A stretch of DNA of 64,000 nt from Myxococcota bacterium (GTDB lineage Bacteria > Myxococcota_A > Bradymonadia > UBA4248): the NCBI GenBank assembly GCA_045599245.1, contig JAZRVP010000002.1:4488-68487 (forward strand). The letters run 5' to 3'. Position numbers and translations under genes: made by a program. Shown one piece after another: positions 5,863-64,000 of the stretch. Within the stretch, counting starts at the first letter, position 1. Each line of letters opens with the position of its first letter. Under the pieces are notes generated by a model. That model ran no database searches. It was not told where the DNA came from and worked only from the letters and a program-made list of their open reading frames with translations.

Positions 5863-5990
5863 AGGAGACGTGCGAAGCGCACGTCTCTGCTCGCCTATCG
5901 CGCGCAAACGCGCAATACGGCTCGCAGCGCCCGGCTATTTTGAAGGCAAAATACGCCGGGCGCATTTTATCGGAATGCCGGCGCTTTGCG
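5863..5990. repeat. cluster of GC-rich hairpin repeats in the divergent promoter region (family member R1)
   Basis: Hairpins seen directly: gagacgtgcg-aa-gcgcacgtctc, cgcctatcgcgcg-caaa-cgcgcaatacggc, gcgcccggctattttg-aagg-caaaatacgccgggcgc. Half-sites are shared with the other intergenic repeats. Confidence 0.6.
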
Positions 5991-6155: not shown

Positions 6156-9100
6156 ATGAAAAAATACATCTTTTTATGCGCAGTATTAAGTCTCGGACTT
6201 GTCGGATGCGGCGATGACTCAAACAACACGTCAGACCCCGTCGAAACTTCTCAATGCGGCAACTCAAAAGTCGAAAACGACGAAGCCTGTGATGACGGAA
6301 ACACAAACGCCGATGACGGCTGTTCTGCCGACTGCTCCCAGGTCGAAGACGGCTGGACATGCCCGAAAGAGGGCGGAAAATGCACGAAAAAAGATTCAGA
6401 ACAGGATCCGCCACTCGACGACGACGCCAAATGCGGCGACGGAAAAGTTACCGGCACAGAAGCCTGTGATGACAGCAACACCGATGACGGCGACGGATGC
6501 ACCGCTGACTGCTCAAAAATCGAAGATGGCTGGACATGCCCAAAAGAGGGCGGAAAATGCGCCAAATCCTCCCAATGCGGCAACAAATCAATTGAAGGCG
6601 ATGAAGCCTGTGATGACGGCAACACCGATGACGGAGACGGATGTGCCGCCGACTGCTCAAAAATTGAAGACAACTATCACTGTCCAACCCCCGGTTATCC
6701 ATGCATCCCTAATTCATGCGGCGATGGCATCACCGATACTTCAGCCGGTGAAGACTGCGACGCTGGCGATGAGAACATCGACTATGGCGATGAGAACGCC
6801 TGTTCGGAAAGCTGCCACCCTGCCCATTACTGCGGCGATGGTCTTCTCGATCAAATCGACATCGACAACGGCGAGGAATGCGATGCCGGTTCAGACACTT
6901 CCACTGAATACAACGGCTGCACATACGACTGCATGAGAAATAATTATTGCGGCGATGGCATCATTCAGTCCGCGAACGAACAGTGCGATGACGGAAACGA
7001 AGACGATGGGGACGGGTGTTCCTCAAGCTGCAAAATAGAACCGAATTTCACCTGCATCACTCAGGACGGAAAAAGCGTCTGCAAGTCCCTTTTGTGCGGA
7101 AATGGAAAAATCGACGAAGATACCGCTGAAACCTGTGACGACGGCAACCGTAACAATGGTGACGGTTGCTCCATGATATGCCTCGTCGAACACACTTTCC
7201 GATGTACCACCGACGAAAATACAGGAACATCCAAATGTGAAAGTACATGCGGCGACGGCATTGTCGATAAAGACACCGGTGAAGCCTGCGACGATGGAAA
7301 TACAAACGACGGCGATGGCTGTTCTTCACAATGCACGCTTGACCCCGGCTATGTCTGCAACGGCACACACTGTTTCGCCAGAGCCTGCGGTGACGGCATC
7401 GTCGCCGGACAGGAAGAATGTGACGATAAAAATACCGACTCCGGTGACGGCTGTTCAAAATTCTGCAAACGCGAAGAAAATTATCATTGCGACAAAGCGG
7501 GAGAACTCTGCCAGCTGGATGTCTGCGGCGACGGCCTCGTAACCGGTGACGAAACTTGTGACGAAGGCCATACCGATCATCCCGAGAACAAAACCGATGG
7601 CTGCCTCAATAGTAAGGTTCAGATGGGCTGGAAATGCGACACGGCAGGCACATCCTGTGTCTCCGCAGTCTGCGGAAACGGCATTCTTGAAGGCGCCGAA
7701 ACCTGTGAAATCCCTGACGCTGATCCCTCCGGTTGCTGCTTAGGCTGCGTTATTCAGCCATTCTGCAAGTGTGATACTGATGGTAAAAACTGCGAAAAAG
7801 GTTCTTGCGGCAATGGCAGGCTCGAAGCCGGTGAACAATGCGATGATGGCAATCTCACTGCCGGTGACGGCTGCGATCCCGTCTGTCGCATTGAGTCCAT
7901 CTTTGAATGCACCCGCGACGACGTAAACGGAACGGCTCAATGCCGCCCTGTGTGCGGCGACGGCGTTACCCTCTGGGACCTCGGCCCCGATGGCAAACCG
8001 TTCGAAGAATGCGACGACGGCAATCTCATCAACGGCGACGGCTGTTCAAGCGACTGCAAAATTGAAACTGGCTTCAGCTGCACGGAATTCGACACTTCCA
8101 CCCTCCCACCAACCCTTAACCTGCCAGTCACATACCGCGACTTCAAAGGACGCGGTGACCGCCGCTCCGGCGCTCAGACCGCAGACGCCGTTAACGGATA
8201 CATGGGCACAAACACATACCCCGCTGACTGCAAACCTACCCCTCTTAACGGCGACGGACATCCCGACTTCGGCGTCACTTCTTATGGCGAACTCCAGCAG
8301 GGAAACGTCCTGAACACCCTCGACAAGGACGGAAAACCCGTTCGAAGCGACCTGCGCCTGCGTTCCGCCTACTATGCCTGCAAGGAATCATTCCATGACT
8401 GGTACCGCGACCGCGAAGGCGTCAACTATCCCGTCAAAACTCACATCCCGGTCAACCTCGTCTCCGGTACCAAAAAATACGAGTTCGCAAACTCGGATTT
8501 CCACCCCATCAAAAATGATGGTTTCAACCGCCCCGGTTCCCCAAGCCCCGGCAACGCCGTCGGTTACATGTTCACTTCAGAGCTCAAAACCTATTTCAAA
8601 TACAACGGCAACGAAAGCCTCTCCTTCTACGGAGACGACGATGTCTGGATCTTCATCAATGGCAAACTCGCTGTCGATATTGGCGGCTGCCACGGCTCTC
8701 TGACAGGCACTCTGCAGCTCGACGACAAACGCGGCATCGGCACCGTTCACGTCAACGACCTCAATGGACATGACCACCCTTCCAATAACGTCCAGCTCGA
8801 CATGTATCCCGGCGGCATCTACGAAATGGCTCTCTTCCATGCCGAACGCTGCCAGGGCGGTTCCGCCTTCAAATTCACAATCGACAACTTTGTCAACACG
8901 GGTTCAAGTACATGCCAGTCCAATTGCGGTGACGGCTTCGTTCGCGGCGCTGAAGAATGCGATTATGTGACGAACAATCTCGATAACGTCGAAGAACAGC
9001 ATGCCAACGGATGTAACCACTGCAAAATCGCCCCATGGTGCGGTAATGGCAAGATCGAAGCCGGTGAAGCCTGTGATCCCGGTGCCGAGGAAACGGACTG

Positions 9101-9656
9101 GTGTTTTGGTCCCGGCAGTGAAAAGCCTTGCCAGCTCAAGACTTGCGGCAACGGCACGTTTGAACCCGAACACGAACAGTGCGACAAATCAGCTCCGGAA
9201 ACGGACGAAAATAAACACGAAAACTGCTCGGATATCTGCCGATTTGTGGGCTGCGGCGACGGCATCCTGCAGCCTGGCGAGGATTGTGATGACGGCAACC
9301 AGTCAGATGATGATATGTGTACAAGAAAATGTACAATTCCTATCTGCGGTGACGGCATCGTTTCCCCATCCATTGGCGAGGTCTGTGATGACGGCATAAA
9401 CGACGGAAGCTATGGCGGATGCGGCCTCGGGTGTACATATCAGACGCCCAAATGCGGCGACGGCATCATCGATGGCACACACGGCGAAGAATGCGATGAC
9501 GGCGAAGAAAACAACGTCGGCGGTTACGGCAAATGCAAAAAAGACTGTAAACTCGACGAACACTGCGGCGACGGCATCCTTCAGGAAGCCTTTGAACAGT
9601 GCGACCCCGGTTTAACCGCCGATTGCACATCAGCCTGTGAACACAGAATCAATTAA
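6156..9656 (+). CDS. Cys-rich repeat (CGDG..E.CDDGN..DGDGCS..C type) surface lipoprotein with central fibro-slime/PA14-like domain
   Basis: Lipoprotein signal MKKYIFLCAVLSLGLVGC. About 25 repeats of CGDGxxxxxEECDDGNxxxGDGCSxxC (Myxococcus cysteine-rich repeat type). The central segment ~8110..8910 (...GYMFTSELKTYFKYNGNESLSFYGDDDVWIFINGKLAVDIGGCHG...) matches the PA14-like fibro-slime domain architecture. Alternate-frame ORFs inside it are artefacts of the repeats. Confidence 0.85.
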   Translation: MKKYIFLCAVLSLGLVGCGDDSNNTSDPVETSQCGNSKVENDEACDDGNTNADDGCSADCSQVEDGWTCPKEGGKCTKKDSEQDPPLDDDAKCGDGKVTGTEACDDSNTDDGDGCTADCSKIEDGWTCPKEGGKCAKSSQCGNKSIEGDEACDDGNTDDGDGCAADCSKIEDNYHCPTPGYPCIPNSCGDGITDTSAGEDCDAGDENIDYGDENACSESCHPAHYCGDGLLDQIDIDNGEECDAGSDTSTEYNGCTYDCMRNNYCGDGIIQSANEQCDDGNEDDGDGCSSSCKIEPNFTCITQDGKSVCKSLLCGNGKIDEDTAETCDDGNRNNGDGCSMICLVEHTFRCTTDENTGTSKCESTCGDGIVDKDTGEACDDGNTNDGDGCSSQCTLDPGYVCNGTHCFARACGDGIVAGQEECDDKNTDSGDGCSKFCKREENYHCDKAGELCQLDVCGDGLVTGDETCDEGHTDHPENKTDGCLNSKVQMGWKCDTAGTSCVSAVCGNGILEGAETCEIPDADPSGCCLGCVIQPFCKCDTDGKNCEKGSCGNGRLEAGEQCDDGNLTAGDGCDPVCRIESIFECTRDDVNGTAQCRPVCGDGVTLWDLGPDGKPFEECDDGNLINGDGCSSDCKIETGFSCTEFDTSTLPPTLNLPVTYRDFKGRGDRRSGAQTADAVNGYMGTNTYPADCKPTPLNGDGHPDFGVTSYGELQQGNVLNTLDKDGKPVRSDLRLRSAYYACKESFHDWYRDREGVNYPVKTHIPVNLVSGTKKYEFANSDFHPIKNDGFNRPGSPSPGNAVGYMFTSELKTYFKYNGNESLSFYGDDDVWIFINGKLAVDIGGCHGSLTGTLQLDDKRGIGTVHVNDLNGHDHPSNNVQLDMYPGGIYEMALFHAERCQGGSAFKFTIDNFVNTGSSTCQSNCGDGFVRGAEECDYVTNNLDNVEEQHANGCNHCKIAPWCGNGKIEAGEACDPGAEETDWCFGPGSEKPCQLKTCGNGTFEPEHEQCDKSAPETDENKHENCSDICRFVGCGDGILQPGEDCDDGNQSDDDMCTRKCTIPICGDGIVSPSIGEVCDDGINDGSYGGCGLGCTYQTPKCGDGIIDGTHGEECDDGEENNVGGYGKCKKDCKLDEHCGDGILQEAFEQCDPGLTADCTSACEHRIN

Positions 9657-9718: not shown

Positions 9719-9813
9719 GAGCCGTATTGCGCCAAAGGCGCGATAGGCGAGTCGCGACGTGCGGTTCGCACGTCGCAGGCATGGCGTATTGGCCAAAGGC
9801 CGATAGCCATGCC
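9719..9813. repeat. three adjacent GC-rich hairpins (family member R2)
   Basis: gccgtattgcgcc-aaa-ggcgcgataggcgag; gcgacgtgcg-gtt-cgcacgtcgc (perfect 10-bp stem); ggcatggcgtattggcc-aaa-ggccgatagccatgcc. Confidence 0.6.
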
Positions 9814-13126: not shown

Positions 13127-13200
13127 CGGCCGGGTGTATCGGCAAAGCCGATAGCCCGGCCCAAGCGAGCCGTATTGCGCGTAGCGCGATAGGCGAGTTT
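13127..13200. repeat. two GC-rich hairpins between convergent genes (family member R4)
   Basis: gccgggtgtatcggc-aaa-gccgatagcccggc and gccgtattgcgc-gtag-cgcgataggcgag; the second is almost identical to the first hairpin of R2. Confidence 0.6.
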
Positions 13201-16951: not shown

Positions 16952-17029
16952 CGTATATACTCCGAAACAGTTCGGTCAGAGCAGAGGCAGAACAAAAAAA
17001 AGCACATCAAGAAATGATGTGCTTTACAA

Positions 17030-17102
17030 CAGGGGTGGAAGGACTCGAACCCTCGGCCCACGGCTTTGGAGGCCGTTGCTCTACCAACTGAGCTACGCCC
17101 CT
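17030..17102 (-). tRNA. tRNA-Trp (anticodon CCA), no encoded CCA tail
   Basis: The minus-strand read AGGGGCG-UA-GCUC-AGUUGGUA-GAGC-A-ACGGC-CUCCAAA-GCCGU-GGGCC-GAGGG-UUCGAGU-CCUUC-CACCCCU-G gives a cloverleaf with U8, A14, G18G19, U33, A37 and a T-loop GTTCGAGTCC. It closely resembles canonical bacterial tRNA-Trp. There is one C6-A67 mismatch in the acceptor stem. Confidence 0.8.
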
Positions 17103-17194
17103 ATCGGACGAGAAAAGATGATGCCACAACTGAAGACTGAAAGCCAGCAAAAAAAGAAAAAAGTTCAGAATAAAGTTACAGCTCAGTCTGGGCT

Positions 17195-17284
17195 CTGCCC
17201 CGAACCCCGCTGGGGCTTTGCCCGATTCCGAAAAGCAGTTGCCATTCGTGCATATCTGCCCCGAACCCCGCTGGGGCTCTGCCC
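17195..17284 (+). repeat. two tandem copies of the CTGCCCCGAACCCCGCTGGGGCT(T/C)TGCCC motif (a third, CTGCCCCCGAACCCCGCC, at 22031..22048)
   Basis: Seen directly at 17195..17223 and 17256..17284. Each unit contains a cccc-gct-gggg mini-hairpin. Confidence 0.6.
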
Positions 17285-17292
17285 CTTTCCTC

Positions 17293-17411
17293 AGTTCGCA
17301 ATATGAAATGCACTTCGTTTCCCGAGCCAGCCTCACCGCTTTGTCACTACGTGACGTTCGCCGTCTCCTTTATGGCGAGGGGGGATTTTGGGTAACATTT
17401 CATTTGCTCAC
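17293..17411 (+). repeat. structured repeat: conserved 36-nt 5' arm + variable perfect hairpin + conserved 3' arm (copy 1)
   Basis: 5' arm agttcgcaatatgaaatgcacttcgtttcccgagcc, inner hairpin gtcac-tac-gtgac, 3' arm catttcatttgctcac. The 36-nt 5' arm recurs exactly, inverted, at 63965..64000, and the copy-1 3' arm recurs with one mismatch (catttcatttgctcacGggg vs ..Tggg); the enclosed hairpin there is different but again perfect. Confidence 0.65.
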
Positions 17412-17413
17412 GG

Positions 17414-17499
17414 GGCTCTCGTCAATTTCTGCCTTAATATTGTGTAACAATCCTTTTTTTTTCGCCAATCTCTGCATATTTCAGTAGATTTGGGAATTA
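17414..17499 (+). promoter_or_regulatory. conserved ~85-nt leader/promoter-like element, copy 1 (upstream of csrA)
   Basis: ggctctcgtcaatttctgccttaatattgtgtaacaatcc...cgccaatctctgcatatttcagtagatttgggaatta, about 85% identical to 22142..22225. It contains the near-palindrome ttgtgtaacaa and a TAgaTTTG motif. Confidence 0.55.
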
Positions 17500-17607
17500 G
17501 GCGTGTCTGAGAAGTAACGATTTGGCGACCAAACCTACATGTGGTTTTATTACATTATTTTAAGTCTAAATACGCCAAAAGCGAGATAAAACCTAGATAA
17601 TTTGCAA

Positions 17608-17716
17608 ATGAGGGAAGAGGGATTATAAGTCGCGGAGTTGAGAACAGCCAGAAGGGTTGTGAACTTAGTCAAGGAAGACGGGATATTATCCCGGTTTCAT
17701 CAGGAAAAGAGGCAAT
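17608..17716 (+). promoter_or_regulatory. GGA-rich csrA leader (candidate CsrA autoregulatory / titration region)
   Basis: Six GGA motifs lie in ~100 nt upstream of the csrA start: gagGGAag, agagGGAtt, cgcGGAgtt, caaGGAaga, acgGGAtat, tcaGGAaaa. The last (tcaGGAaaa) adjoins the SD aagagg. Confidence 0.5.
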
Positions 17717-17941
17717 ATGCTGACATTAACGCGCAAACCTGAAGAGACAATTGTCATAGGAGACGGGCCGGAACGGATCGAAGTGATTGTGAAAGAGATC
17801 AGACGCAATCAGGTTCGGCTAGGGATAGTGGCCCCTGACAATGTGAGGATATTCAGAAAAGAGTTGATAGATCGCGAGGATGAAGAACGCGAGGAATCCG
17901 TGGACGTGACGTCAAGAGAAGAGGGCACACCGAAAAGATAA
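17717..17941 (+). CDS. csrA: carbon storage regulator CsrA (RNA-binding translational regulator) with acidic C-terminal extension
   Basis: MLTLTRKPEETIVIGDGPERIEVIVKEIRRNQVRLGIVAPDNVRIFRKEL matches the CsrA signature (MLxLTRK.GE...IGD......G.QV(R)(I/L)G(I)(D/V)AP..V.I.R.E). The SD is aagagg. Confidence 0.85.
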   Translation: MLTLTRKPEETIVIGDGPERIEVIVKEIRRNQVRLGIVAPDNVRIFRKELIDREDEEREESVDVTSREEGTPKR

Positions 17942-21978: not shown

Positions 21979-22141
21979 CATCCATAACCACGCACCACTC
22001 TTTTTTTTTCGTTACTATTCAGGCGGAGCTCTGCCCCCGAACCCCGCCAAAGAGCTGAGCCTTTTGGAATCCTCAATATTTTAGGTGAATAAAAACTATT
22101 GGAGCTGCCTTACAATTGTTCCCCGCCGGGGCCCCTCCCCC

Positions 22142-22225
22142 GGCTCTCGTCAAATTTTACCTTATTATTGCGTAATAATCCGCTTTTCGCCAATCACTGA
22201 TCATATTTCAGAGGTTTGTGAATTA
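22142..22225 (+). promoter_or_regulatory. conserved ~85-nt leader/promoter-like element, copy 2 (upstream of small secreted-protein gene)
   Basis: ggctctcgtcaaattttaccttattattgcgtaataatccgcttttcgccaatcactgatcatatttcagaggtttgtgaatta. It is preceded by the CTGCCCCCGAACCCCGCC motif at 22031. Confidence 0.55.
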
Positions 22226-22332
22226 ACCCAGGCTGTGCTGTAACTTTTTTTATCGATTTATGGCGCGGATTTTGACTAGATGCTATAGTCTTCTCGTGCT
22301 GAACCCGTGTGTTAAATAAAAGGAGAATTAAA

Positions 22333-22728
22333 ATGAAAAAAGCACTTGTTTTCGTCATGATGGCAGTAGGGTTATTGACAGTTTCCACGACAGCATTTGC
22401 CTATGAAAAGGGCGATCGTGTTCTCGCTTTATGGGAAGATGCTTTCTGGTATCCCGGAACAGTTCAGTCACAGGACGGCAACGTTGTTCTGATTTATTTT
22501 GATGACGGCGACAAAGCAACCGTTGACTCGGAACGCGTAAACAAACTGGACTGGGCGGCCGGCGACAAAGTTGAATGCCGTTGGGACTACGACAACAAGA
22601 ATTATCCCGGCACCTTCGTAAAAGTTGAAGGCGAAAATGTCCGCATCGTCTATGACGACGGTGACAAAGCCAATACGACGGCATCGCGCTGCCGCCAGAG
22701 TCGCGCCAGCCGACTTGTCGGCCGCTAA
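22333..22728 (+). CDS. small secreted protein with two tandem ~45-aa Tudor/Agenet/SH3-like beta-barrel repeats
   Basis: ATG at 22333 with aaggag SD. Signal peptide MKKALVFVMMAVGLLTVSTTAFA. The repeats are GDRVLALWEDAFWYPGTVQSQDGNVVLIYFDDGDKATV / GDKVECRWDYDNKNYPGTFVKVEGENVRIVYDDGDKANT. Confidence 0.7.
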   Translation: MKKALVFVMMAVGLLTVSTTAFAYEKGDRVLALWEDAFWYPGTVQSQDGNVVLIYFDDGDKATVDSERVNKLDWAAGDKVECRWDYDNKNYPGTFVKVEGENVRIVYDDGDKANTTASRCRQSRASRLVGR

Positions 22729-22786: not shown

Positions 22787-23344
22787 ATGATGACAATCGT
22801 TGAAAAATATGAACGCAGTCTTTGCACCGAAAACTGCGATGAACTTTTCAAAACGATCGATGCCATGTCGGCTCAGGACAATCCCCTCCCGATTTCCTTA
22901 TGGAAATCGGCGTGTCATGCTTTGCAACTGATTGCTCAAAAAACGTGGTGGAAATGCCAATGCGGGCCCATTGAACCCAATGCATCAACCATCGATGCAC
23001 TTTGTCCAACATGCGGAGAATTCAGAATTTTACCGCAAAGAATGCAAAGATCACCCTGGCCATTGTATATTATTTGTCTCAAACATTTATATCCGGAGAC
23101 ATGGTTTGACGCATTATTTGCCTGGATGAAGCAAAAATATCCGGAAACAGAAATCAAAGCCGGCGTATGTCCAAAGGACATAGCCGGCGGGGGGAGCGCC
23201 GTATTGCCACCGGCAATAGGCGCGCGGGGGGCCGTGCCCCACGTCCCAAACGCCATTCACTGTATTGACGGCATGATCATCGAAGATACAGGCACGATTC
23301 GCGGCCTGCAATGGATTGCCCTTCCCATGATGCCGATCGATTGA
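22787..23344 (+). CDS. hypothetical protein with CxC...CxxC zinc-ribbon-like motif; 3' third of ORF is built from palindromic repeats
   Basis: The start was re-set to MMTIVEK at 22787, after the terminator. WKCQCGPIEPNASTIDALCPTCGE resembles a Zn ribbon. Codons 22787+ ~375..460 coincide with the hairpin repeats at 23159..23243. Confidence 0.4.
   Translation: MMTIVEKYERSLCTENCDELFKTIDAMSAQDNPLPISLWKSACHALQLIAQKTWWKCQCGPIEPNASTIDALCPTCGEFRILPQRMQRSPWPLYIICLKHLYPETWFDALFAWMKQKYPETEIKAGVCPKDIAGGGSAVLPPAIGARGAVPHVPNAIHCIDGMIIEDTGTIRGLQWIALPMMPID
23159..23243. repeat. GC-rich hairpin repeats embedded in the 22787..23344 ORF (family member R5)
   Basis: gccggcgtatgtcc-aaa-ggacatagccggc; gcgccgtattgcc-acc-ggcaataggcgcgc (its reverse complement is nearly identical to R3); gggggccgtgcccc. 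Confidence 0.6.
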
Positions 23345-23455: not shown

Positions 23456-26035
23456 GTGAACTACCGAAGACTTTTCTCAATCAGCATTTTATCAGCACTC
23501 ACCGTGGCCGGATGTGCAGACAGCGTCTCCAACCCAATTCAGCCGGCAACCTGCGGAAACAATGTCCGTGAACTCAATGAAGTCTGTGATGGAACCGATT
23601 TAAACAATCTTTCATGCAGCCATTTTAAAATGGGCTCAACGGGAACGCTGGCCTGTGCAGCCGACTGCACCAAATATGAGATTTCAGGCTGTTCGGCACC
23701 AACCTGTGGAAACAATATCCTGGATGCCAACGAAGACTGTGATGGCGCACTGTTTGCGAACATGAAAAATGTCTGTCCCGCCGGAACCACGGGAACACCC
23801 GTATGTGTCAACTGCCAGATCACGGGCTGCACCCCTGTCACGCCATCCCCAACCTCGAAATGCGGAAACAACATACTTGAAACTGGCGAAGTCTGCGACG
23901 GCACGGATGTCGGCGGCAAAACATGCAACGACTTCATCGCCGGTTCTCAGGGTACGGTATCATGTCAGACAGACTGTCTCGCCTATAATGCCACCCAGTG
24001 CAAACTCGAAACCTGCGGAAACAAGTCCATTGATGCCGGAGAGGACTGTGACGATACCGCATTTGCCCCGGGCAAAGACAAATGCCCGGACGGTTATACG
24101 GGAACACCGGTTTGTGACGTAAACTGCACAATATCGGGCTGCACACCGATCGCCAAAGACTGCGATGACGGCGCATCCAAATGCGAAAATAATGCAGTGT
24201 CACAGTGCGCCGGCGGAAAATGGGTTGAAATCCAAAAATGCGAATATGGATGCAACGGAAATGTCTGCAACACCGAAGCTCCTGCCGGCTGCAACAACAA
24301 CAAACTCGATGCCGGTGAAGATTGCGACGGAACTTTGTTTGCCGATGGCAAAGACAAATGCCCGGACGGCTACACCGGCACTCCGGTCTGCAACGAGAAT
24401 TGCGTCGTCACGGGTTGCACACCGACACAGGAAGAAAAGCCCAAATGCGGCGATGGTGAAGTCAACCAGGAGAGTGAGGAATGCGACGGAACAAAATTCG
24501 CCGCTGGAAAAGACACATGTCCCGACGGATACACCGGCACACCGAGTTGTGACGCCGCGACATGCAAAGTCACCGGTTGCACACCTGTAACTGACACACC
24601 CAAATGCGGTGACGGTGAAGTCAACCAGGAAAGTGAAGAATGCGACGGAACAAAATTCGCCGCTGGAAAAGATACATGTCCCTCAGGATATACAGGCACT
24701 CCGGTTTGTGACCCCAACACGTGCAAAGTTACCGGATGCACGGAAGAATCGAGTGAAATCGAAATTAAGTGTACAGACAACGTACTCCAGATGTGCGAAA
24801 ACGGCACATGCATCGATGACAAAGATTGTACGGTCAGTGCCAAATTATGCGATGCTCAGAAAGGCGAATGCGTCGAACACGATTTCACATGCGACGGCAC
24901 AAAAATGGTCTTCGGCAACGACGGAACCGTTGACTGCAGCAAACGAAAAGACGGTCAGGTCGGCTGCGCCGATGCATTCGGCTGTGCCGATCAGTACTGC
25001 TCCGGAAACAAGCTCATGGACGGCACCAACGTCCAGATTGACTGCTCAAGTTTCGGCGGCACATGTGACAACACACTCGTCGAATGCGTCTGCACTGAAG
25101 ACGTCATCGGCTGTTTCGACAACGGTTCGAAAAAAATTTCCGTCGTGTGCGATGAAACAGGTGCCGAGATTGATTACTGCGCCGGCGACTGCGACGACAA
25201 CAACGGCTGCCTCGCCAAAGAACCTTCCTGCGGCGACGGCGAAATCAATACCGTCAACGGCGTGGCCGAACTCTGCGATTACGACAGCAACAACAAGCCC
25301 ATCTGGACTTCTGTTTACAACCAGTACTTCGTCAACTACGAACCAACCTGCAACTTCTATAATTACAGCCAGGGCGGCGACGTCATCTACGTCTCCGGTG
25401 CACCTTCCTGCAAAAACAAAAATAACAAGTGCAGCATCGATGTCTCGACCTGCAATGTCGCAACCGACGCCGATTTCGTCGATGTTTATTCCTGGAATTT
25501 CTCATCCATGGACTACATCAAAAATCTTACCAACAGCACGAACAGCAACAAAATCGGCGGTGTTGCCATTCATCACACGAGTGAAAATGACGGATTTAAA
25601 GTCAGTCAGTATGTCAAAGAAGATAAAGCCTGGCAGATCGGTTCCTGGACAAAAGGCACAAATCCCGATTTTGAAAACACTTATATGTGGTTCAAGGCCG
25701 GTGATGCCAAAAACAACGTCGTCCAAATTACCTTTGACATCAAACGCGCTGAAACCGGCCCGCAAAAAGCCCAGCTTCAGTTCTTTGACGGCACCACGGC
25801 TCTCAAAGAAAAAGTCAACAACAAGGAAGTCGATGCCAAATCCGCCGTCATTGATATACCAAAGAAAGACACCTATTATCCCGTCACGATCATTTATCGC
25901 CCCGATCGCTATCATGCCAACGAAGTTGTCGAAAACTTCACGTTCAAACTCACGGGTTATTCGGCCACAACAGGCGATGGAAACGGCTCAATGTCGATCA
26001 AAAATGTCGTCGTTAAAAGTGTGAATGCCCTCTAA
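23456..26035 (+). CDS. Cys-rich repeat surface lipoprotein (about 8 repeats TCGN..D.GE.CDGT.F....D.CP.GYTGTP.C.-C.VTGCTP) with C-terminal beta-sandwich-like domain
   Basis: Lipoprotein signal MNYRRLFSISILSALTVAGC. The protein-level repeats are very regular. There is a near-identical ~150-nt tandem DNA duplication at 24441..24745. The C-terminal ~300 aa are non-repetitive. Confidence 0.85.
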   Translation: MNYRRLFSISILSALTVAGCADSVSNPIQPATCGNNVRELNEVCDGTDLNNLSCSHFKMGSTGTLACAADCTKYEISGCSAPTCGNNILDANEDCDGALFANMKNVCPAGTTGTPVCVNCQITGCTPVTPSPTSKCGNNILETGEVCDGTDVGGKTCNDFIAGSQGTVSCQTDCLAYNATQCKLETCGNKSIDAGEDCDDTAFAPGKDKCPDGYTGTPVCDVNCTISGCTPIAKDCDDGASKCENNAVSQCAGGKWVEIQKCEYGCNGNVCNTEAPAGCNNNKLDAGEDCDGTLFADGKDKCPDGYTGTPVCNENCVVTGCTPTQEEKPKCGDGEVNQESEECDGTKFAAGKDTCPDGYTGTPSCDAATCKVTGCTPVTDTPKCGDGEVNQESEECDGTKFAAGKDTCPSGYTGTPVCDPNTCKVTGCTEESSEIEIKCTDNVLQMCENGTCIDDKDCTVSAKLCDAQKGECVEHDFTCDGTKMVFGNDGTVDCSKRKDGQVGCADAFGCADQYCSGNKLMDGTNVQIDCSSFGGTCDNTLVECVCTEDVIGCFDNGSKKISVVCDETGAEIDYCAGDCDDNNGCLAKEPSCGDGEINTVNGVAELCDYDSNNKPIWTSVYNQYFVNYEPTCNFYNYSQGGDVIYVSGAPSCKNKNNKCSIDVSTCNVATDADFVDVYSWNFSSMDYIKNLTNSTNSNKIGGVAIHHTSENDGFKVSQYVKEDKAWQIGSWTKGTNPDFENTYMWFKAGDAKNNVVQITFDIKRAETGPQKAQLQFFDGTTALKEKVNNKEVDAKSAVIDIPKKDTYYPVTIIYRPDRYHANEVVENFTFKLTGYSATTGDGNGSMSIKNVVVKSVNAL

Positions 26036-30132: not shown

Positions 30133-30281
30133 GCGATCCTATGCGCCGCAGACGCATACGGATCGCGGCGGCGCGGCCTAATAGATACGGCCGCGCTGCT
30201 TTTTTTTAAGAAAATCGCCGGGCGTATGGCGCAGGCCATAGACCGGCGCGCGGGGCGTATGGCGCAGGCCATAGTCCCGCC
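30133..30281. repeat. hairpin cluster plus terminator plus 2x tandem GGGCGTATGGCGCAGGCCATAG repeat (family member R6)
   Basis: gcgatcctatgcg..cgcatacggatcgc; gcgcggcc-taatagatac-ggccgcgc followed by T8 (terminator of the 26170 gene); then two tandem copies of gggcgtatggcgcaggccatag(a/t)cc. Confidence 0.65.
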
Positions 30282-31995: not shown

Positions 31996-33255
31996 ATGCC
32001 GCACAGCCAGGCCCTCGAGGCCGATAGAAGCATTATTTTGAGAAAACACGACCACAGACATACATCCTCAGAGATGCATCCCGATGAAATTCTTGCGCGC
32101 GCACTGCTGCGCACCCAGGCTGATTACGACGACGTCGTATCGACGATTTCCTATTCTCGCGGTTTTCCCGTCTGGACTCACCGACAGACGGTTCTCTTTA
32201 TTCTTCGTCAGGACAACGGCCCCTGGGCGGTACGGGGCGATTTCAACGACTGGAATCCGTTTCCGATGCAGCAGGCCGAAAACGGCCTGTGGTATGCCGA
32301 ACTTCGCATACCGCGAATGATCGGTCAGGGGATTCGATACAGCTATATCAACGCCGAAAACGAGGTTATTGCCGATCCGCTTGCGCGCTGTTTTGGCGAA
32401 GACAACGACGGAGAATTTTCCTATCTCAAGCGGCCCTCCCGCACGCAGTACCTCATGCGCTGGAATGATTTCAAAAGCCCGCAGGGCCTGAAATCGCGTC
32501 CGCTTCACATCCTTGTTCCGCCCAATCCCGGGCCTTATGACGTTCTTTATGTTCACGACGGCCAGAACCTTTTCAGCAAGGACAGCATTTGCGGCGGCTG
32601 GAAACTGTGTGAAAACATGGCCGAAATCGGCGGAAATTTTCTCATCGTCGGCATCTGGAACAGTCCGGACAGAATGCGAGAATACACGCACGCAACCGAC
32701 CTGTACGATGACGACTATCACGCGACACTGGGCAGGAAATACGCGTCATTTGTCGAGGAAACGGTTCGTCCGTTCATCGAGTCGCATTTTGAAACGACGC
32801 CGCGAGCCGGCCTGATGGGTTCATCCCTTGGCGGCCTCATCAGCCTGTATATTGCGAACTGCTATCCCGGACGGTATGACTCGGTGTTTGCACTCTCGCC
32901 GACGACGGCCTGGGGGCACTTTGGGAGCGACAACGGACCTCTGATTCGCGATTTTTATGAGAAATCAGGCCATCAAAACACGTTTCTGTACATCGATCAC
33001 GGCGGCATGTTTCCGAAAGAAGGGATGCCGGATGTCTTTGACCGCAAGGCCGCGATACGAGATGAATCGGGCTGGGCCAGTCCGTACGACAACTGCTGTC
33101 ATACGTTTGATTTTGTGTCGGCCCTGGTCGAACTTGGCTACCGTCAGAGCGTCGATATGTTTTACCAGCACATTCCCGGGGCGATGCACAACGAAGGCGC
33201 GTGGGCCTCGCGCGTAAGCCGGCCGCTGCGGCTATTCATGCAAAAGAAAAAGTAG
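31996..33255 (+). CDS. esterase (putative-esterase / enterochelin-esterase-like alpha/beta fold) with N-terminal CBM48/E-set glycogen-binding-like domain
   Basis: WAVRGDFNDWNPFPMQQAENGLWYAELRI (E-set/CBM48-like), followed by the GSSLGG nucleophile elbow and a C-terminal HNEGAW region. An alternative start MHPDEIL lies at 32074. Confidence 0.75.
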   Translation: MPHSQALEADRSIILRKHDHRHTSSEMHPDEILARALLRTQADYDDVVSTISYSRGFPVWTHRQTVLFILRQDNGPWAVRGDFNDWNPFPMQQAENGLWYAELRIPRMIGQGIRYSYINAENEVIADPLARCFGEDNDGEFSYLKRPSRTQYLMRWNDFKSPQGLKSRPLHILVPPNPGPYDVLYVHDGQNLFSKDSICGGWKLCENMAEIGGNFLIVGIWNSPDRMREYTHATDLYDDDYHATLGRKYASFVEETVRPFIESHFETTPRAGLMGSSLGGLISLYIANCYPGRYDSVFALSPTTAWGHFGSDNGPLIRDFYEKSGHQNTFLYIDHGGMFPKEGMPDVFDRKAAIRDESGWASPYDNCCHTFDFVSALVELGYRQSVDMFYQHIPGAMHNEGAWASRVSRPLRLFMQKKK

Positions 33256-33330
33256 GCCGGGCGTATCGCTAAGGCGATAGCCCGGCAGGCGAGCCGTAGA
33301 GCCGCAAAATTTTACGGCTCAAGACGAGCC
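33254..33330. repeat. two hairpins between convergent genes (family member R7)
   Basis: gccgggcgtatcgc-taag-gcgatagcccggc (compare R4) and gccg-caaaatttta-cggc. Confidence 0.6.
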
Positions 33331-43104: not shown

Positions 43105-43166
43105 GCGCGGCGTATGTCAATAGCCGCGCTCGCGAAGCGTATTCGCCTTTGGCGAATAGCGAAGCC
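43105..43166. repeat. two hairpins between co-directional genes (family member R8)
   Basis: gcgcggc-gtatgtcaata-gccgcgc and gcgtattcgcc-ttt-ggcgaatagcg. Confidence 0.6.
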
Positions 43167-47436: not shown

Positions 47437-47473
47437 GGCCGGCCTATGGCGCACATCGCGCCATACGTCCGCC
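47437..47473. repeat. hairpin (family member R9)
   Basis: ggccggcc-tatggcgc-acat-gcgccata-cg; this is the perfect tatggcgc/gcgccata stem. Confidence 0.6.
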
Positions 47474-53820: not shown

Positions 53821-53877
53821 CCTGTGCGTATGAAATAGCACAGGCACGGGCGGCGTATGGCTTCGCCATAGACGCCC
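53821..53877. repeat. two hairpins inside AT-rich island (family member R11)
   Basis: cctgtgc-gtatgaaata-gcacagg and ggcgtatggc-ttc-gccatagacgcc. Confidence 0.6.
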
Positions 53878-60913: not shown

Positions 60914-61020
60914 GCTATTGCTTCGCAATACGCAGCTCGTCCTGCGGCTATCGGCTTCGCCAATACGCCGCAGCCGCCCGTCTCCTCGCCGCCATTTCAT
61001 GGCGACTCAATACGACGGGC
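60914..61020. repeat. hairpin repeats between convergent genes (family member R12)
   Basis: tattgc-ttc-gcaata and cggctatcggc-ttc-gccaatacgccg. Confidence 0.55.
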
Positions 61021-62400: not shown

Positions 62401-62852
62401 GAAAAAAGCCCCAATATCACTACCATATTCACTTATTTACCGACAAACCATTTTCATCGTTATTGTGCTGGCTATAGCCTTGCATCCCTCTAACCAAGCA
62501 CAAATGCACAAGGCTTCAAAGGAAACGCCAGGCTGCAAGTTGCCCCCGGATAACGCATCAAACCTCACGACCAACCATCATCTTGCCAAGACGATATGCA
62601 GCCACATTCCAGATCAAAATCACCTATTCAGGCAAACTGAATACGACCTTATGACCGGTTCAGGCGACATACACCACGATGAAATCGATGACGGCTAGAC
62701 TGTTGTTTTATGCGGCAATGAGAATTTCGAACACACCAGCACACGACTTTCCCCCTCCCCGAATTATTTTGTAAAATTTATGTCCTTTTTTCCGAAAAAT
62801 GCCCAATTAAATGCATACAAGTTCGTTCAGTCACAATAAATTGAGGTTCAAT

Positions 62853-63830
62853 ATGTCAGAATGTGATGTTCTATGTCGTGAATTTATGAGCGACCCGCAG
62901 ATATTTGCAGAAGCATTTAATTTCTATCTCTATCGTGGCGAGGAGGTCATAAAACCTGAAGACTTAAAGGAATGTGATACAAAACTCGTTCATTCATCAA
63001 ACAAAAAGCAAAGCAGCATTTGGAAAGAGAGAGACATTTTCAAAGAAGTTTATCGAGATGAAAACCATATCTATTTAGTTTTAGGAATTGAAAACCAGGC
63101 ATCCATTGACTACTGGATGCCACTTCGTATCATGTTATACGATGTCTTGAGCTATATATCCCAAATGCAGAACAAAACACTTCAAAACGCATTTATCGAT
63201 GCAGAAAAGCCCAATCAACATCACAGGCAGCGTCTTCTTCCTGTAATAACGCTTGTCATAAATTACAGTTTATCAGCCTGGACAGGTCCGAAAACATTAC
63301 ACGAACTCATGGGAAATCAACCAAAAGACCTGCTCAAGTTTGTTCCCGACTATCCACTGTTCGTTCTCGATCCGCATAAAATAAAATCATCAGAGCTTGC
63401 CATGATGAAAAGCGAGTTAGGTTGTGTATGCAAGTGCCTAAAATATTGCAGGAATAGATCAGGACTGAAAAAAATGGTAAAATTAGACAGCCGTTTCAAG
63501 TCACTGAGCAAAACTGCGGCTAAATTACTTAATCAAAGGTTAAATCTTGGTATAAAAATCGATAATCGAGAACCAAAGGAGAAATGCAATATGTGTCAAG
63601 CCATTGAAGAAATGAAAGCCATCGCAGAAAAACGGGGGGAAAAACGGGGGGAAAAACTCGGAGCAAAACAGGGAAACAAAGAGGGACGTCTTCTGGTTGC
63701 TAAAAATCTGCTTCAACAAACTGATATGACCATCAAGGCTATTGCTGCTTCAACTGAATTAACCCAACGTGAAATCAAACAAATTGCTGCTGAATTGTCT
63801 AAAGAAAGTCTGAATAATACACATTTTTAA
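62853..63830 (+). CDS. Rpn-family recombination-promoting nuclease / putative transposase (PD-(D/E)XK, YhgA-like)
   Basis: The start was re-set to MSECDVL at 62853. IYLVLGIENQASIDYWMPLRIMLYDV and LPVITLVINYSLSAWTGP match the family core. The C-terminal AEKRGEKRGEKLGAKQGNKEGRLLVAKNLLQQTDMTIKAIA is the characteristic repeat + HTH-like tail. Confidence 0.8.
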   Translation: MSECDVLCREFMSDPQIFAEAFNFYLYRGEEVIKPEDLKECDTKLVHSSNKKQSSIWKERDIFKEVYRDENHIYLVLGIENQASIDYWMPLRIMLYDVLSYISQMQNKTLQNAFIDAEKPNQHHRQRLLPVITLVINYSLSAWTGPKTLHELMGNQPKDLLKFVPDYPLFVLDPHKIKSSELAMMKSELGCVCKCLKYCRNRSGLKKMVKLDSRFKSLSKTAAKLLNQRLNLGIKIDNREPKEKCNMCQAIEEMKAIAEKRGEKRGEKLGAKQGNKEGRLLVAKNLLQQTDMTIKAIAASTELTQREIKQIAAELSKESLNNTHF

Positions 63831-63889
63831 GGCAAAAAATTGATAAAAGCTGAGGGTGGGTGCCGAGACGACAGGCGTCCACTGGACGA

Positions 63890-64000
63890 CTGGCATCGCA
63901 GCGCCCAGTGAGCAAATGAAATGAACGGCCAGTCGAGGCGTTGTGCACAACGCCTCGACCAACAGGCTCGGGAAACGAAGTGCATTTCATATTGCGAACT
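63890..64000 (-). repeat. inverted second copy of the 17293..17411 structured repeat (truncated by window end)
   Basis: Reverse complement of 63965..64000 equals 17293..17328 exactly (36 nt). The inner hairpin here is gtcgaggcgttgtg-c-acaacgcctcgac. The 3' arm catttcatttgctcac is conserved. Confidence 0.65.

Follow-up and report, generated by a model that had tools for sequence, protein, structure and literature searches.

A structured intergenic repeat of Bradymonadia-like gut and rumen bacteria is probably the core of a miniature mobile DNA element

The 64,000-nucleotide stretch of Myxococcota DNA analyzed here (the window) carries two copies of a structured element, hereafter B. B is probably the core of a short repeat of the MITE/REPIN/BOX-like kind, non-coding and non-autonomous, that is, or was until recently, mobile as DNA; we favor a miniature mobile DNA element over an RNA gene as its most likely identity. 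It is part of a small family of mosaic non-coding intergenic repeats in uncultured gut and rumen Bradymonadia-like bacteria, and constitutes a new family of an already known kind of repeat. The original prediction had proposed a small RNA, a MITE-like element or a recombination site. The MITE-like option fits best, given the imperfect terminal inverted repeats of B, its presence at non-orthologous loci and a pair of filled and empty alleles, while the argument from compensatory evolution that accompanied these proposals did not survive. We retain the name B for the element first described and designate the adjoining modules A, C and D, and the mini-hairpin GGGGC-TCT-GCCCC as h0 (Table 1).

Table 1. 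Positions of B, its parts and the adjoining modules, in window coordinates unless a contig is named.
Feature	Position	Strand	Sequence or remarks
B copy 1	17293..17411	+	covariance-model score 152.9 bits; length ~120 bases
B copy 1, 5′ arm	17293-17328	+	AGTTCGCAATATGAAATGCACTTCGTTTCCCGAGCC
B copy 1, hairpin 1	17343-17355	+	GTCAC-TAC-GTGAC
B copy 1, hairpin 2	about 17359-17384	+	
B copy 1, 3′ arm	17396-17411	+	CATTTCATTTGCTCAC
B copy 2	63908..64000	-	same arms; 5′ flank beyond window end; 104.4 bits
B copy 2, interior	63932-63959	-	28-nt perfect palindrome (14+14)
B copy 2, 3′ arm	63908-63923	-	CATTTCATTTGCTCAC
A module	17175..17223	+	GTTAC..CTCAG..GGGCTCTGCCCCGAACCCCGC and hairpin GGGGC-TTT-GCCC; second hairpin “empty”
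A module, partial	17256..17292	+	ends in h0 (17273-17285), then linker TTTCCTC
A-like module without B	22026..22077	+	second hairpin CCAAAGAGC-TGA-GCCTTTTGG intact (“empty site”)
C module directly 3′ of copy 1	17414..17518	+	GGCTCTCGTCAATTTCTGCCTTAATATTGTGTAACAATCC...
C module, second	22142..22244	+	~90 nt upstream of start codon at 22334
C module, truncated	63806..63850	-	reverse complement gives last codons and stop (63828-63830) of the Rpn gene
D module adjoining copy 2	63858..63907	-	nested hairpin bounded by GGGC...GCCC; core hairpin 63868-63896
B copy in contig L001	389-516		4.7-kb contig of a Myxococcota MAG

The anatomy of B initially described was recovered in full. The 36-nt 5′ arm of copy 1 is found again, without any mismatch and in inverted orientation, at 63965-64000, and these are its only two matches in the window at up to three mismatches, against none in 100 shuffles. 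The 3′ arm is likewise common to both copies (two window matches versus 0.11 expected), and each copy contains the inner hairpin attributed to it. As predicted, the 3′ arm pairs with the 5′ arm (GCAA.ATGAAATG / CATTTCATTTGC). The resulting closing stem has 12 bp and a single bulge, and the RNA and DNA folds of the four complete copies of B all contain it. The ends of the element are imperfect inverted repeats, GTTCGCAATATGAAATG matching the reverse complement of GTGAGCAA-ATGAAATG at 14 of 17 positions. Similarity between copies extends beyond the coordinates initially assigned, into GGGGCTCTGCCCCTTTCCTC on the 5′ side and into KGGGCKCT and further modules on the 3′ side. With a GC content of 0.48-0.53, as compared to ~0.49 overall in the window (range about 0.43-0.56), B is not AT-rich. 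Copy 1 is bordered left and right by an 8-nt motif, GGGGCTCT, which also flanks copy 2 and the copy in L001; being common to several copies, this motif either belongs to the repeat or represents a preferred target.

B does not appear to encode a peptide or to carry its own promoter. The frame opened in the 5′ arm (ATG AAA TGC...) runs for 30 codons in copy 1, is shifted by a 1-nt indel in L001 and has lost its ATGs in another copy, on contig L021, such that no peptide is conserved. The reverse strand of copy 1 contains a −35/−10-like pair that the other copies do not share; a consensus scan of B found no promoter, and no promoter or terminator was consistent among the copies. In an Rfam scan only the tRNA reached the gathering threshold, and at E ≤ 10 both copies of B returned just chance-level matches to eukaryotic and miscellaneous families. 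A candidate diverged copy at 32849-32861 proved to be a 13-nt chance match within a coding region.

Copies of B outside the window are few. The exact 36-mer had a single match among 185,579 representative genomes, in L001. A covariance model, a check that the original prediction had proposed, was derived from the two window copies and the L001 copy; run over 197 kb, it added two copies to these three: L021 6882-7008 (93.7 bits, E = 5e-23) and L024 6819-6909, which is truncated by the contig end (E = 2e-13). Filter-free searches with covariance models over about 175 kb revealed no further copies. B is thus represented by five copies at four non-orthologous loci in three lineages (5 matches in about 200 kb). 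A 22-mer had no match in JGI metagenomes or IMG/VR, a degenerate arm pattern had none in IMG/VR, blastn against plasmids found none, and the sole match to a gapped two-arm pattern was a chance occurrence inside an Hsp20 open reading frame. Syntenic loci of relatives were gathered through homologues of CsrA and of a 266-aa YfiO-like protein. The source samples are rumen or gut metagenomes, and the related proteins are labelled Bradymonadia or Bradymonadales.

The interior of B was said to be a compensatory hairpin, with a stem that was fully substituted between the two copies and still perfect. This part of the original prediction was not supported. The interiors of copy 1 (67 nt) and copy 2 (41 nt) are non-homologous and cannot be aligned, and the copy-1 interior is itself conserved in relatives: it forms a three-way junction with two short hairpins that is also found in L001, L021 and L024, and copy 1, L001 and L021 have two hairpins in common, TGTCAC-NNN-GTGACA and CCCCTCTCCAT..ATGGCGAGGGG. 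Because the two interiors are unequal and unalignable while that of copy 1 is kept in relatives, copy 2 represents the replacement of a module and not a base-by-base compensation. Between copy 1 and L001, the helices have no double-sided changes and three one-sided changes, all from U-G to U-A. When L021 is added, 9 of the 12 pairs of the closing stem are invariant, one shows a compensatory change (G-C to C-G) and two are broken in L021; hairpin 2 has one further compensatory pair and several broken ones. Within the lineage of the window, both arms are unchanged between the two window copies and L001 (36/36 and 16/16), whereas about 30% of positions differ between the interiors of copy 1 and L001. 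In comparison with L021, arms and interior have diverged about equally (~78-79% identity). Conserved arms around a divergent interior fit a need for mobilization or gene conversion, and also fit selection on an RNA.

Covariation is found next to B rather than in the stem originally singled out. The D hairpin, at 63868-63896 in the window, keeps an apex of the form T-YC-NNN-GG-A while its stems differ among four copies; 88.6% of cells are paired, 8 of 11 pairs are changed on both sides, none of 500 shuffles performed as well and pairing is far worse in slid registers. This covariation is real, and does not discriminate between an RNA and single-stranded or cruciform DNA.

Could B represent a family of small structured RNA genes, or an RNA element acting in cis, transcribed from the + strand at copy 1? 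We regard this as rather improbable. Selection on such an RNA would account for arms that remain identical while interior and flanks diverge, and for folds that are more stable than those of shuffled sequences (z-scores of −2.2 for copy 1, −5.7 for copy 2 and −5.4 for L001), yet the entire interior is swappable for an unrelated palindrome and two pairs of the closing stem are broken in L021. The single compensatory change in that stem and the one-sided changes, which are all U-G to U-A on the given strand, point in the direction of an RNA, as does the ~78% identity of B between lineages whose neighboring proteins are ~71% identical. Nonetheless, B is non-syntenic in relatives, its orientation toward genes varies, with one copy lying in a segment inverted between strains, and it has neither a consistent promoter or terminator nor a match to an Rfam family.

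B is embedded in a mosaic of other modules. A is a conserved double hairpin of ~85 nt (GTTAC..CTCAGCCGGGGCTCTGCCCCGRACCCCGC followed by a second hairpin) that is also found in distant relatives, and h0 is the tail of A. The left flank GGGGCTYTGCCC(C)TTTCCTC, which contains h0, is common to copy 1 and L001, and the D module lies to the right of B in copy 2, L001 and L021. C is present in two copies in L001. The modules are arranged as A-A-B-C at copy 1, as B-D-C at copy 2 and in L001, as A...C without B at about 22 kb in the window, and as A with B-D inside in L021. B is usually accompanied by h0 on its left and by the D hairpin on its right, in a unit of ~170-190 nt.

Comparison of related strains provided a filled and an empty allele of one site. 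The same 261-aa protein, P0252, is encoded without any difference by L020, L021, L022, L023 and L024; a 173-nt block consisting of B and D is present in L021 and L024 (L021 6844-7016) and absent from L020, L022 and L023. The YfiO-like and GNAT genes abut in the window and are separated by 400 nt in L020 and by 563 nt in L021. Alignment by blastn of L021 with L020 revealed an inverted segment of ~280 nt (an A module plus 224 nt) and 173 additional nucleotides, which correspond to B and D. In L021 and L024, the block aligns in the loop of the second hairpin of the A module, or at the 3′ edge of this loop. The L021 allele reads GCCAAAGGGC-TCTTGCC[B-D]CCCCTTTGG, and the empty hairpin reads GCCAAGGGC-ATGAT-GCCCTTGG in L020, L022 and L006. 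The hairpin that hosts the block, CCAAGGGC-ATGAT-GCCCTTGG, is intact in these three contigs and at 22026-22077 in the window. The loop of the second A hairpin measures 3-5 nt in all alleles and lineages other than L021 and L024. Since a short loop is common to four lineages, the filled state is most simply an insertion and the empty state ancestral. This is the only filled/empty pair, and it lies within a segment that is also inverted and 88% identical between alleles. At that level of identity, and with GGGCTCT-type flanks around all copies, no target-site duplication could be read at the L021/L020 site.

These alleles bear on the view that B is not mobile, and is instead a piece of mosaic promoter-region or spacer sequence (A-B-D-C) copied by recombination, gene conversion or segmental duplication, with hairpins that are incidental. 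Such copying is an unlikely origin for B. The order and orientation of B relative to D and C are constant, as a copied spacer would have it, whereas the combinations in which the modules occur differ among loci. Conservation continues past the inverted repeats, which along with the low density of copies in the available sequence also counts against a mobile repeat, but within one lineage the interior has diverged much more than the arms. csrA, the gene at 22334 and an open reading frame in L001 each have a C module upstream, consistent with a promoter-region sequence; moreover, A modules can serve as inverted repeats for an inversion and no target-site duplication was found. Against this stands the clean appearance of B and D inside one hairpin of an otherwise collinear A module.

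The inverted segment also raises the possibility that B is a site-specific recombination site, attC-like or of the inverted-repeat type found in invertons, acted upon by an integrase or invertase. We consider this highly improbable. B resembles integron attC sites in having imperfect inverted ends around a variable center, and one copy does lie within a segment inverted between strains; however, the end points of that inversion are ends of A modules (TTGGTAACTGTTCAGCCG) and not B. The ends of B (AGTTCGC... and ...GCTCAC) lack GTTRRRY / RYYYAAC core sites, no integrase, cassette array or recombinase is found near any copy, and the two copies in the window are 46 kb apart. The segment itself, between the YfiO-like and GNAT genes (L020 10835-11115 versus L021 6615-7058), is bounded in L020 by inverted repeats of ~18-20 nt, TTGGTAACTGTTCAGCCG / CGGCTGAATAGTTACCAA. 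This segment could act as an invertible switch, or its inversion could just be the outcome of recombination between ends of A modules.

The neighbors of B were correctly identified in the original prediction. Copy 1 lies between the tRNA-Trp gene (17029-17103, - strand) and csrA (17717-17941, PF02599), and copy 2 lies next to an Rpn/YhgA-like gene (62811-63830, PF04754). Nearness of B to csrA, tRNA-Trp and Rpn is incidental, and the orientation of B toward adjacent genes changes from copy to copy. B was not found in the orthologous tRNA-Trp/csrA spacers of relatives. In the P0130 group (L005 and L006) this spacer has an equal length and is occupied by heptamer tandem repeats and other GC hairpins instead, and in the P0125 group (L011-L015) there is no B within 385 nt of csrA. 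We discarded the candidate role of B as part of the csrA leader because upstream of csrA only the block CCTACATGTGGTT is common to relatives. A CsrB/RsmZ-type sponge for CsrA was discarded as well: B is absent upstream of the csrA genes of relatives and contains only 1-3 GGA motifs per copy on its forward strand, too few for a CsrB/Rsm-type RNA despite the nearby csrA.

The csrA region has features of its own. Comparison of the sequences upstream of csrA (window 17534-17716; L004 17-199; L005 8445-8630; L013 205-385) revealed a conserved block, CCTACATGTGGTTTTATT, ~180 nt upstream of the gene in all lineages examined. The csrA leader contains several GGA motifs, one of which lies over the ribosome-binding site (...CAGGAAAAGAGGCAATATG), an arrangement that would be consistent with autoregulation by CsrA, judging from these motifs. 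The tRNA-Trp/csrA spacers of the P0130 group (L005 8040-8400 and L006 290-650) have an unusual composition, with runs of the heptamers AATTAGC/AATTCGC, AGCAGTT, CGTAATT and GCGCATT surrounding GC hairpins that include one with a GGA-containing loop (CACGCCCCGGAGGGGGCGT).

Rpn proteins have been described as toxic nucleases and as antiphage toxins with an intragenic antitoxin (PMC5350276, PMC10400941), and neither of these reports describes Rpn as a transposase of such repeats. We rejected B as a part of an Rpn unit since Rpn homologues P0002 and P0003 lack the element: P0002 is followed by a plain terminator and P0003, a 76%-identical homologue (L003 122-760), by a separate small RpnS-like open reading frame starting MCQAIEEMKAIAEKRGEKRG. 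Like the Rpn/RpnS toxin-antitoxin genes (PMC10400941), the Rpn gene of the window encodes four-residue repeats of the GEKR type (AEKRGEKRGEKLG) together with an internal Met (MCQAIEEMKAI...). Its open reading frame runs into the reverse complement of the truncated C module, which supplies the last six codons and the stop, so that the protein ends in ...SKESLNNTHF* versus ...NKETA* in P0003. The second half of that C module was not found upstream of Rpn. In relatives, the gene upstream of the YfiO-like gene encodes a peptidase of family M3 and not Rpn, and with the peptidase gene at that position, Rpn and the adjoining B-D-C modules are a lineage-specific addition in the window.

In the way it would work, B is most like REPINs, and also like BOX elements, by analogy of architecture. 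REPINs are doublets of REP sequences served by RAYT transposases, with conserved inverted ends around a less conserved spacer and a long persistence in their lineages (PMC3116915). B similarly has two conserved inverted ends around a less conserved spacer of 60-90 nt that keeps its potential to form hairpins, is exclusively extragenic, persists across related lineages as variant copies and singlet remnants, and is adjoined by structure-preserving changes, namely those in the 8 of 11 D-hairpin pairs altered on both sides. It differs from REPINs in that its arms are unequal (36 versus 16-24 conserved nt), are not REP palindromes and lack a GTAG/GTGG head, in that a three-way junction takes the place of a simple spacer, and in the low density observed in the available sequence. 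A GT[AG]G head is a criterion for REP palindromes, and REP-RAYT systems are characterized by tens to hundreds of copies and a cognate RAYT gene in the genome. No gene for a RAYT (Y1 transposase) was found among the window open reading frames scanned.

Streptococcal BOX elements have the structure boxA-boxB(n)-boxC, in which terminal modules pair around optional inner modules (PMC3049150). B is modular in the same sense: paired terminal modules form its main stem, its inner modules fold on themselves and are absent, swapped or added, combined repeats form mosaics, and copies adjoin or overlap gene ends, as does the C module that contains the Rpn stop codon. By contrast with BOX elements, no copy of B contains tandem boxB-type arrays, the sequences are unrelated and from a different phylum, and the target-site duplications reported for BOX were not seen for B. 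With MITEs such as Correia, ERIC, RUP and Nezha, B shares a length of 90-190 nt, terminal inverted repeats (14/17), a strongly base-paired prediction, unrelated intergenic sites and a filled/empty polymorphism between strains; it differs from them in not being AT-rich and in that neither a target-site duplication nor a parent IS with matching ends was identified. The flanks of B are conserved, unlike those of MITEs, because B lands in, or is embedded within, another repeat.

BIMEs of E. coli are mosaics of palindromic units and conserved linkers, and IS1397 and ISKpn1 insert inside REP hairpins. IS1397 is an autonomous element of the IS3 family with its own transposase. The repeats described here resemble these systems in being a mosaic of palindromes and linkers in which a newer element sits inside a hairpin of an older one, and differ from IS1397 in that the inserted unit is non-coding. 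Integron attC sites differ from B in their R″/R′ core sites (RYYYAAC / GTTRRRY), cassette array and IntI, all of which are absent at the copies of B.

On a single strand, the inverted ends of B zip into the 12-bp stem around a dispensable interior, either a three-way junction or an unrelated GC-rich palindrome. If B is indeed a miniature mobile element, we propose that this interior would be free to be replaced. The h0-B-D unit would usually move as a whole and land in or next to hairpins of the older, lineage-wide A repeat. An enzyme whose gene lies elsewhere in the genome would mobilize it in trans; this enzyme may recognize the arms, which are conserved, and the apex of the hairpin, in DNA that is single-stranded or in cruciform shape, with hairpin loops as its preferred targets. 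Effects on neighboring genes, such as transcript stability or insulation, would be a by-product. Apart from the Rpn gene, the window open reading frames scanned contained no transposase, and neither an autonomous parent element nor a candidate transposase with matching ends was found. One could go further and suppose that h0-B-D is the substrate of an undescribed system of single-stranded DNA transposition or recombination that targets hairpin loops, recognizing the arms and the D apex and inserting into A loops, or else that B-D is a structured non-coding RNA spread by such a system, a conjecture to which we attach little weight.

Other repeats are present in the window. A separate family of short hairpins has the form G-TAT-[GC-rich variable stem]-loop-[stem′]-ATA-G (C...C on the other strand) and is usually nested in a further GC stem. 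It occurs at 5895-5918, 9724-9746, 9786-9806, 13136-13154, 13172-13192, 23165-23219, 30139-30274, 33263-33280, 43139-43159, 47444-47466, 53855-53871 and 60915-60931, with 17 matches in total as compared to 0.96 expected from shuffles, 13 of which fall in intergenic DNA, which by a crude gene call makes up ~10% of the window. Its sequence suggests a family of the REP type, in which a TAT/ATA collar is conserved and the stems covary freely. Two inverted 37-nt arms built of GC-hairpin repeats (5867-5903 and 9738-9774, 89% complementary) flank on both sides the gene for a 1166-aa cysteine-rich repeat protein (6156-9656). Large secreted proteins made of cysteine-rich repeats of the CGDG..E.CD type are encoded at this position, at 23456-26035 and by neighboring genes in the window, as well as in L001 (544-3794), and are the source of most direct-repeat families in the window. 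The L001 copy of B lies just upstream of the gene for a cysteine-rich repeat lipoprotein. In the closest relative (Logan SRR21151017), contigs L004 and L019 terminate at or beside these modules, their position 1 lying within ~20 nt of the end of similarity to the repeat-bearing spacers of the window. Short-read assemblies of the lineage are therefore probably interrupted by these repeats.

The B family opens no long-standing question, and its main interest would lie in the enzyme that moves it and in the apparent preference for hairpin loops. If our reading is true, B adds a new family of miniature mobile repeats to a poorly studied, uncultured Myxococcota/Bradymonadia-like lineage of the gut and rumen, with a clear architecture in which repeats are nested inside the hairpins of older repeats. 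Such repeats can alter the ends of genes, as illustrated by the Rpn open reading frame that reads into one of them, and can mark variation at the level of strains.
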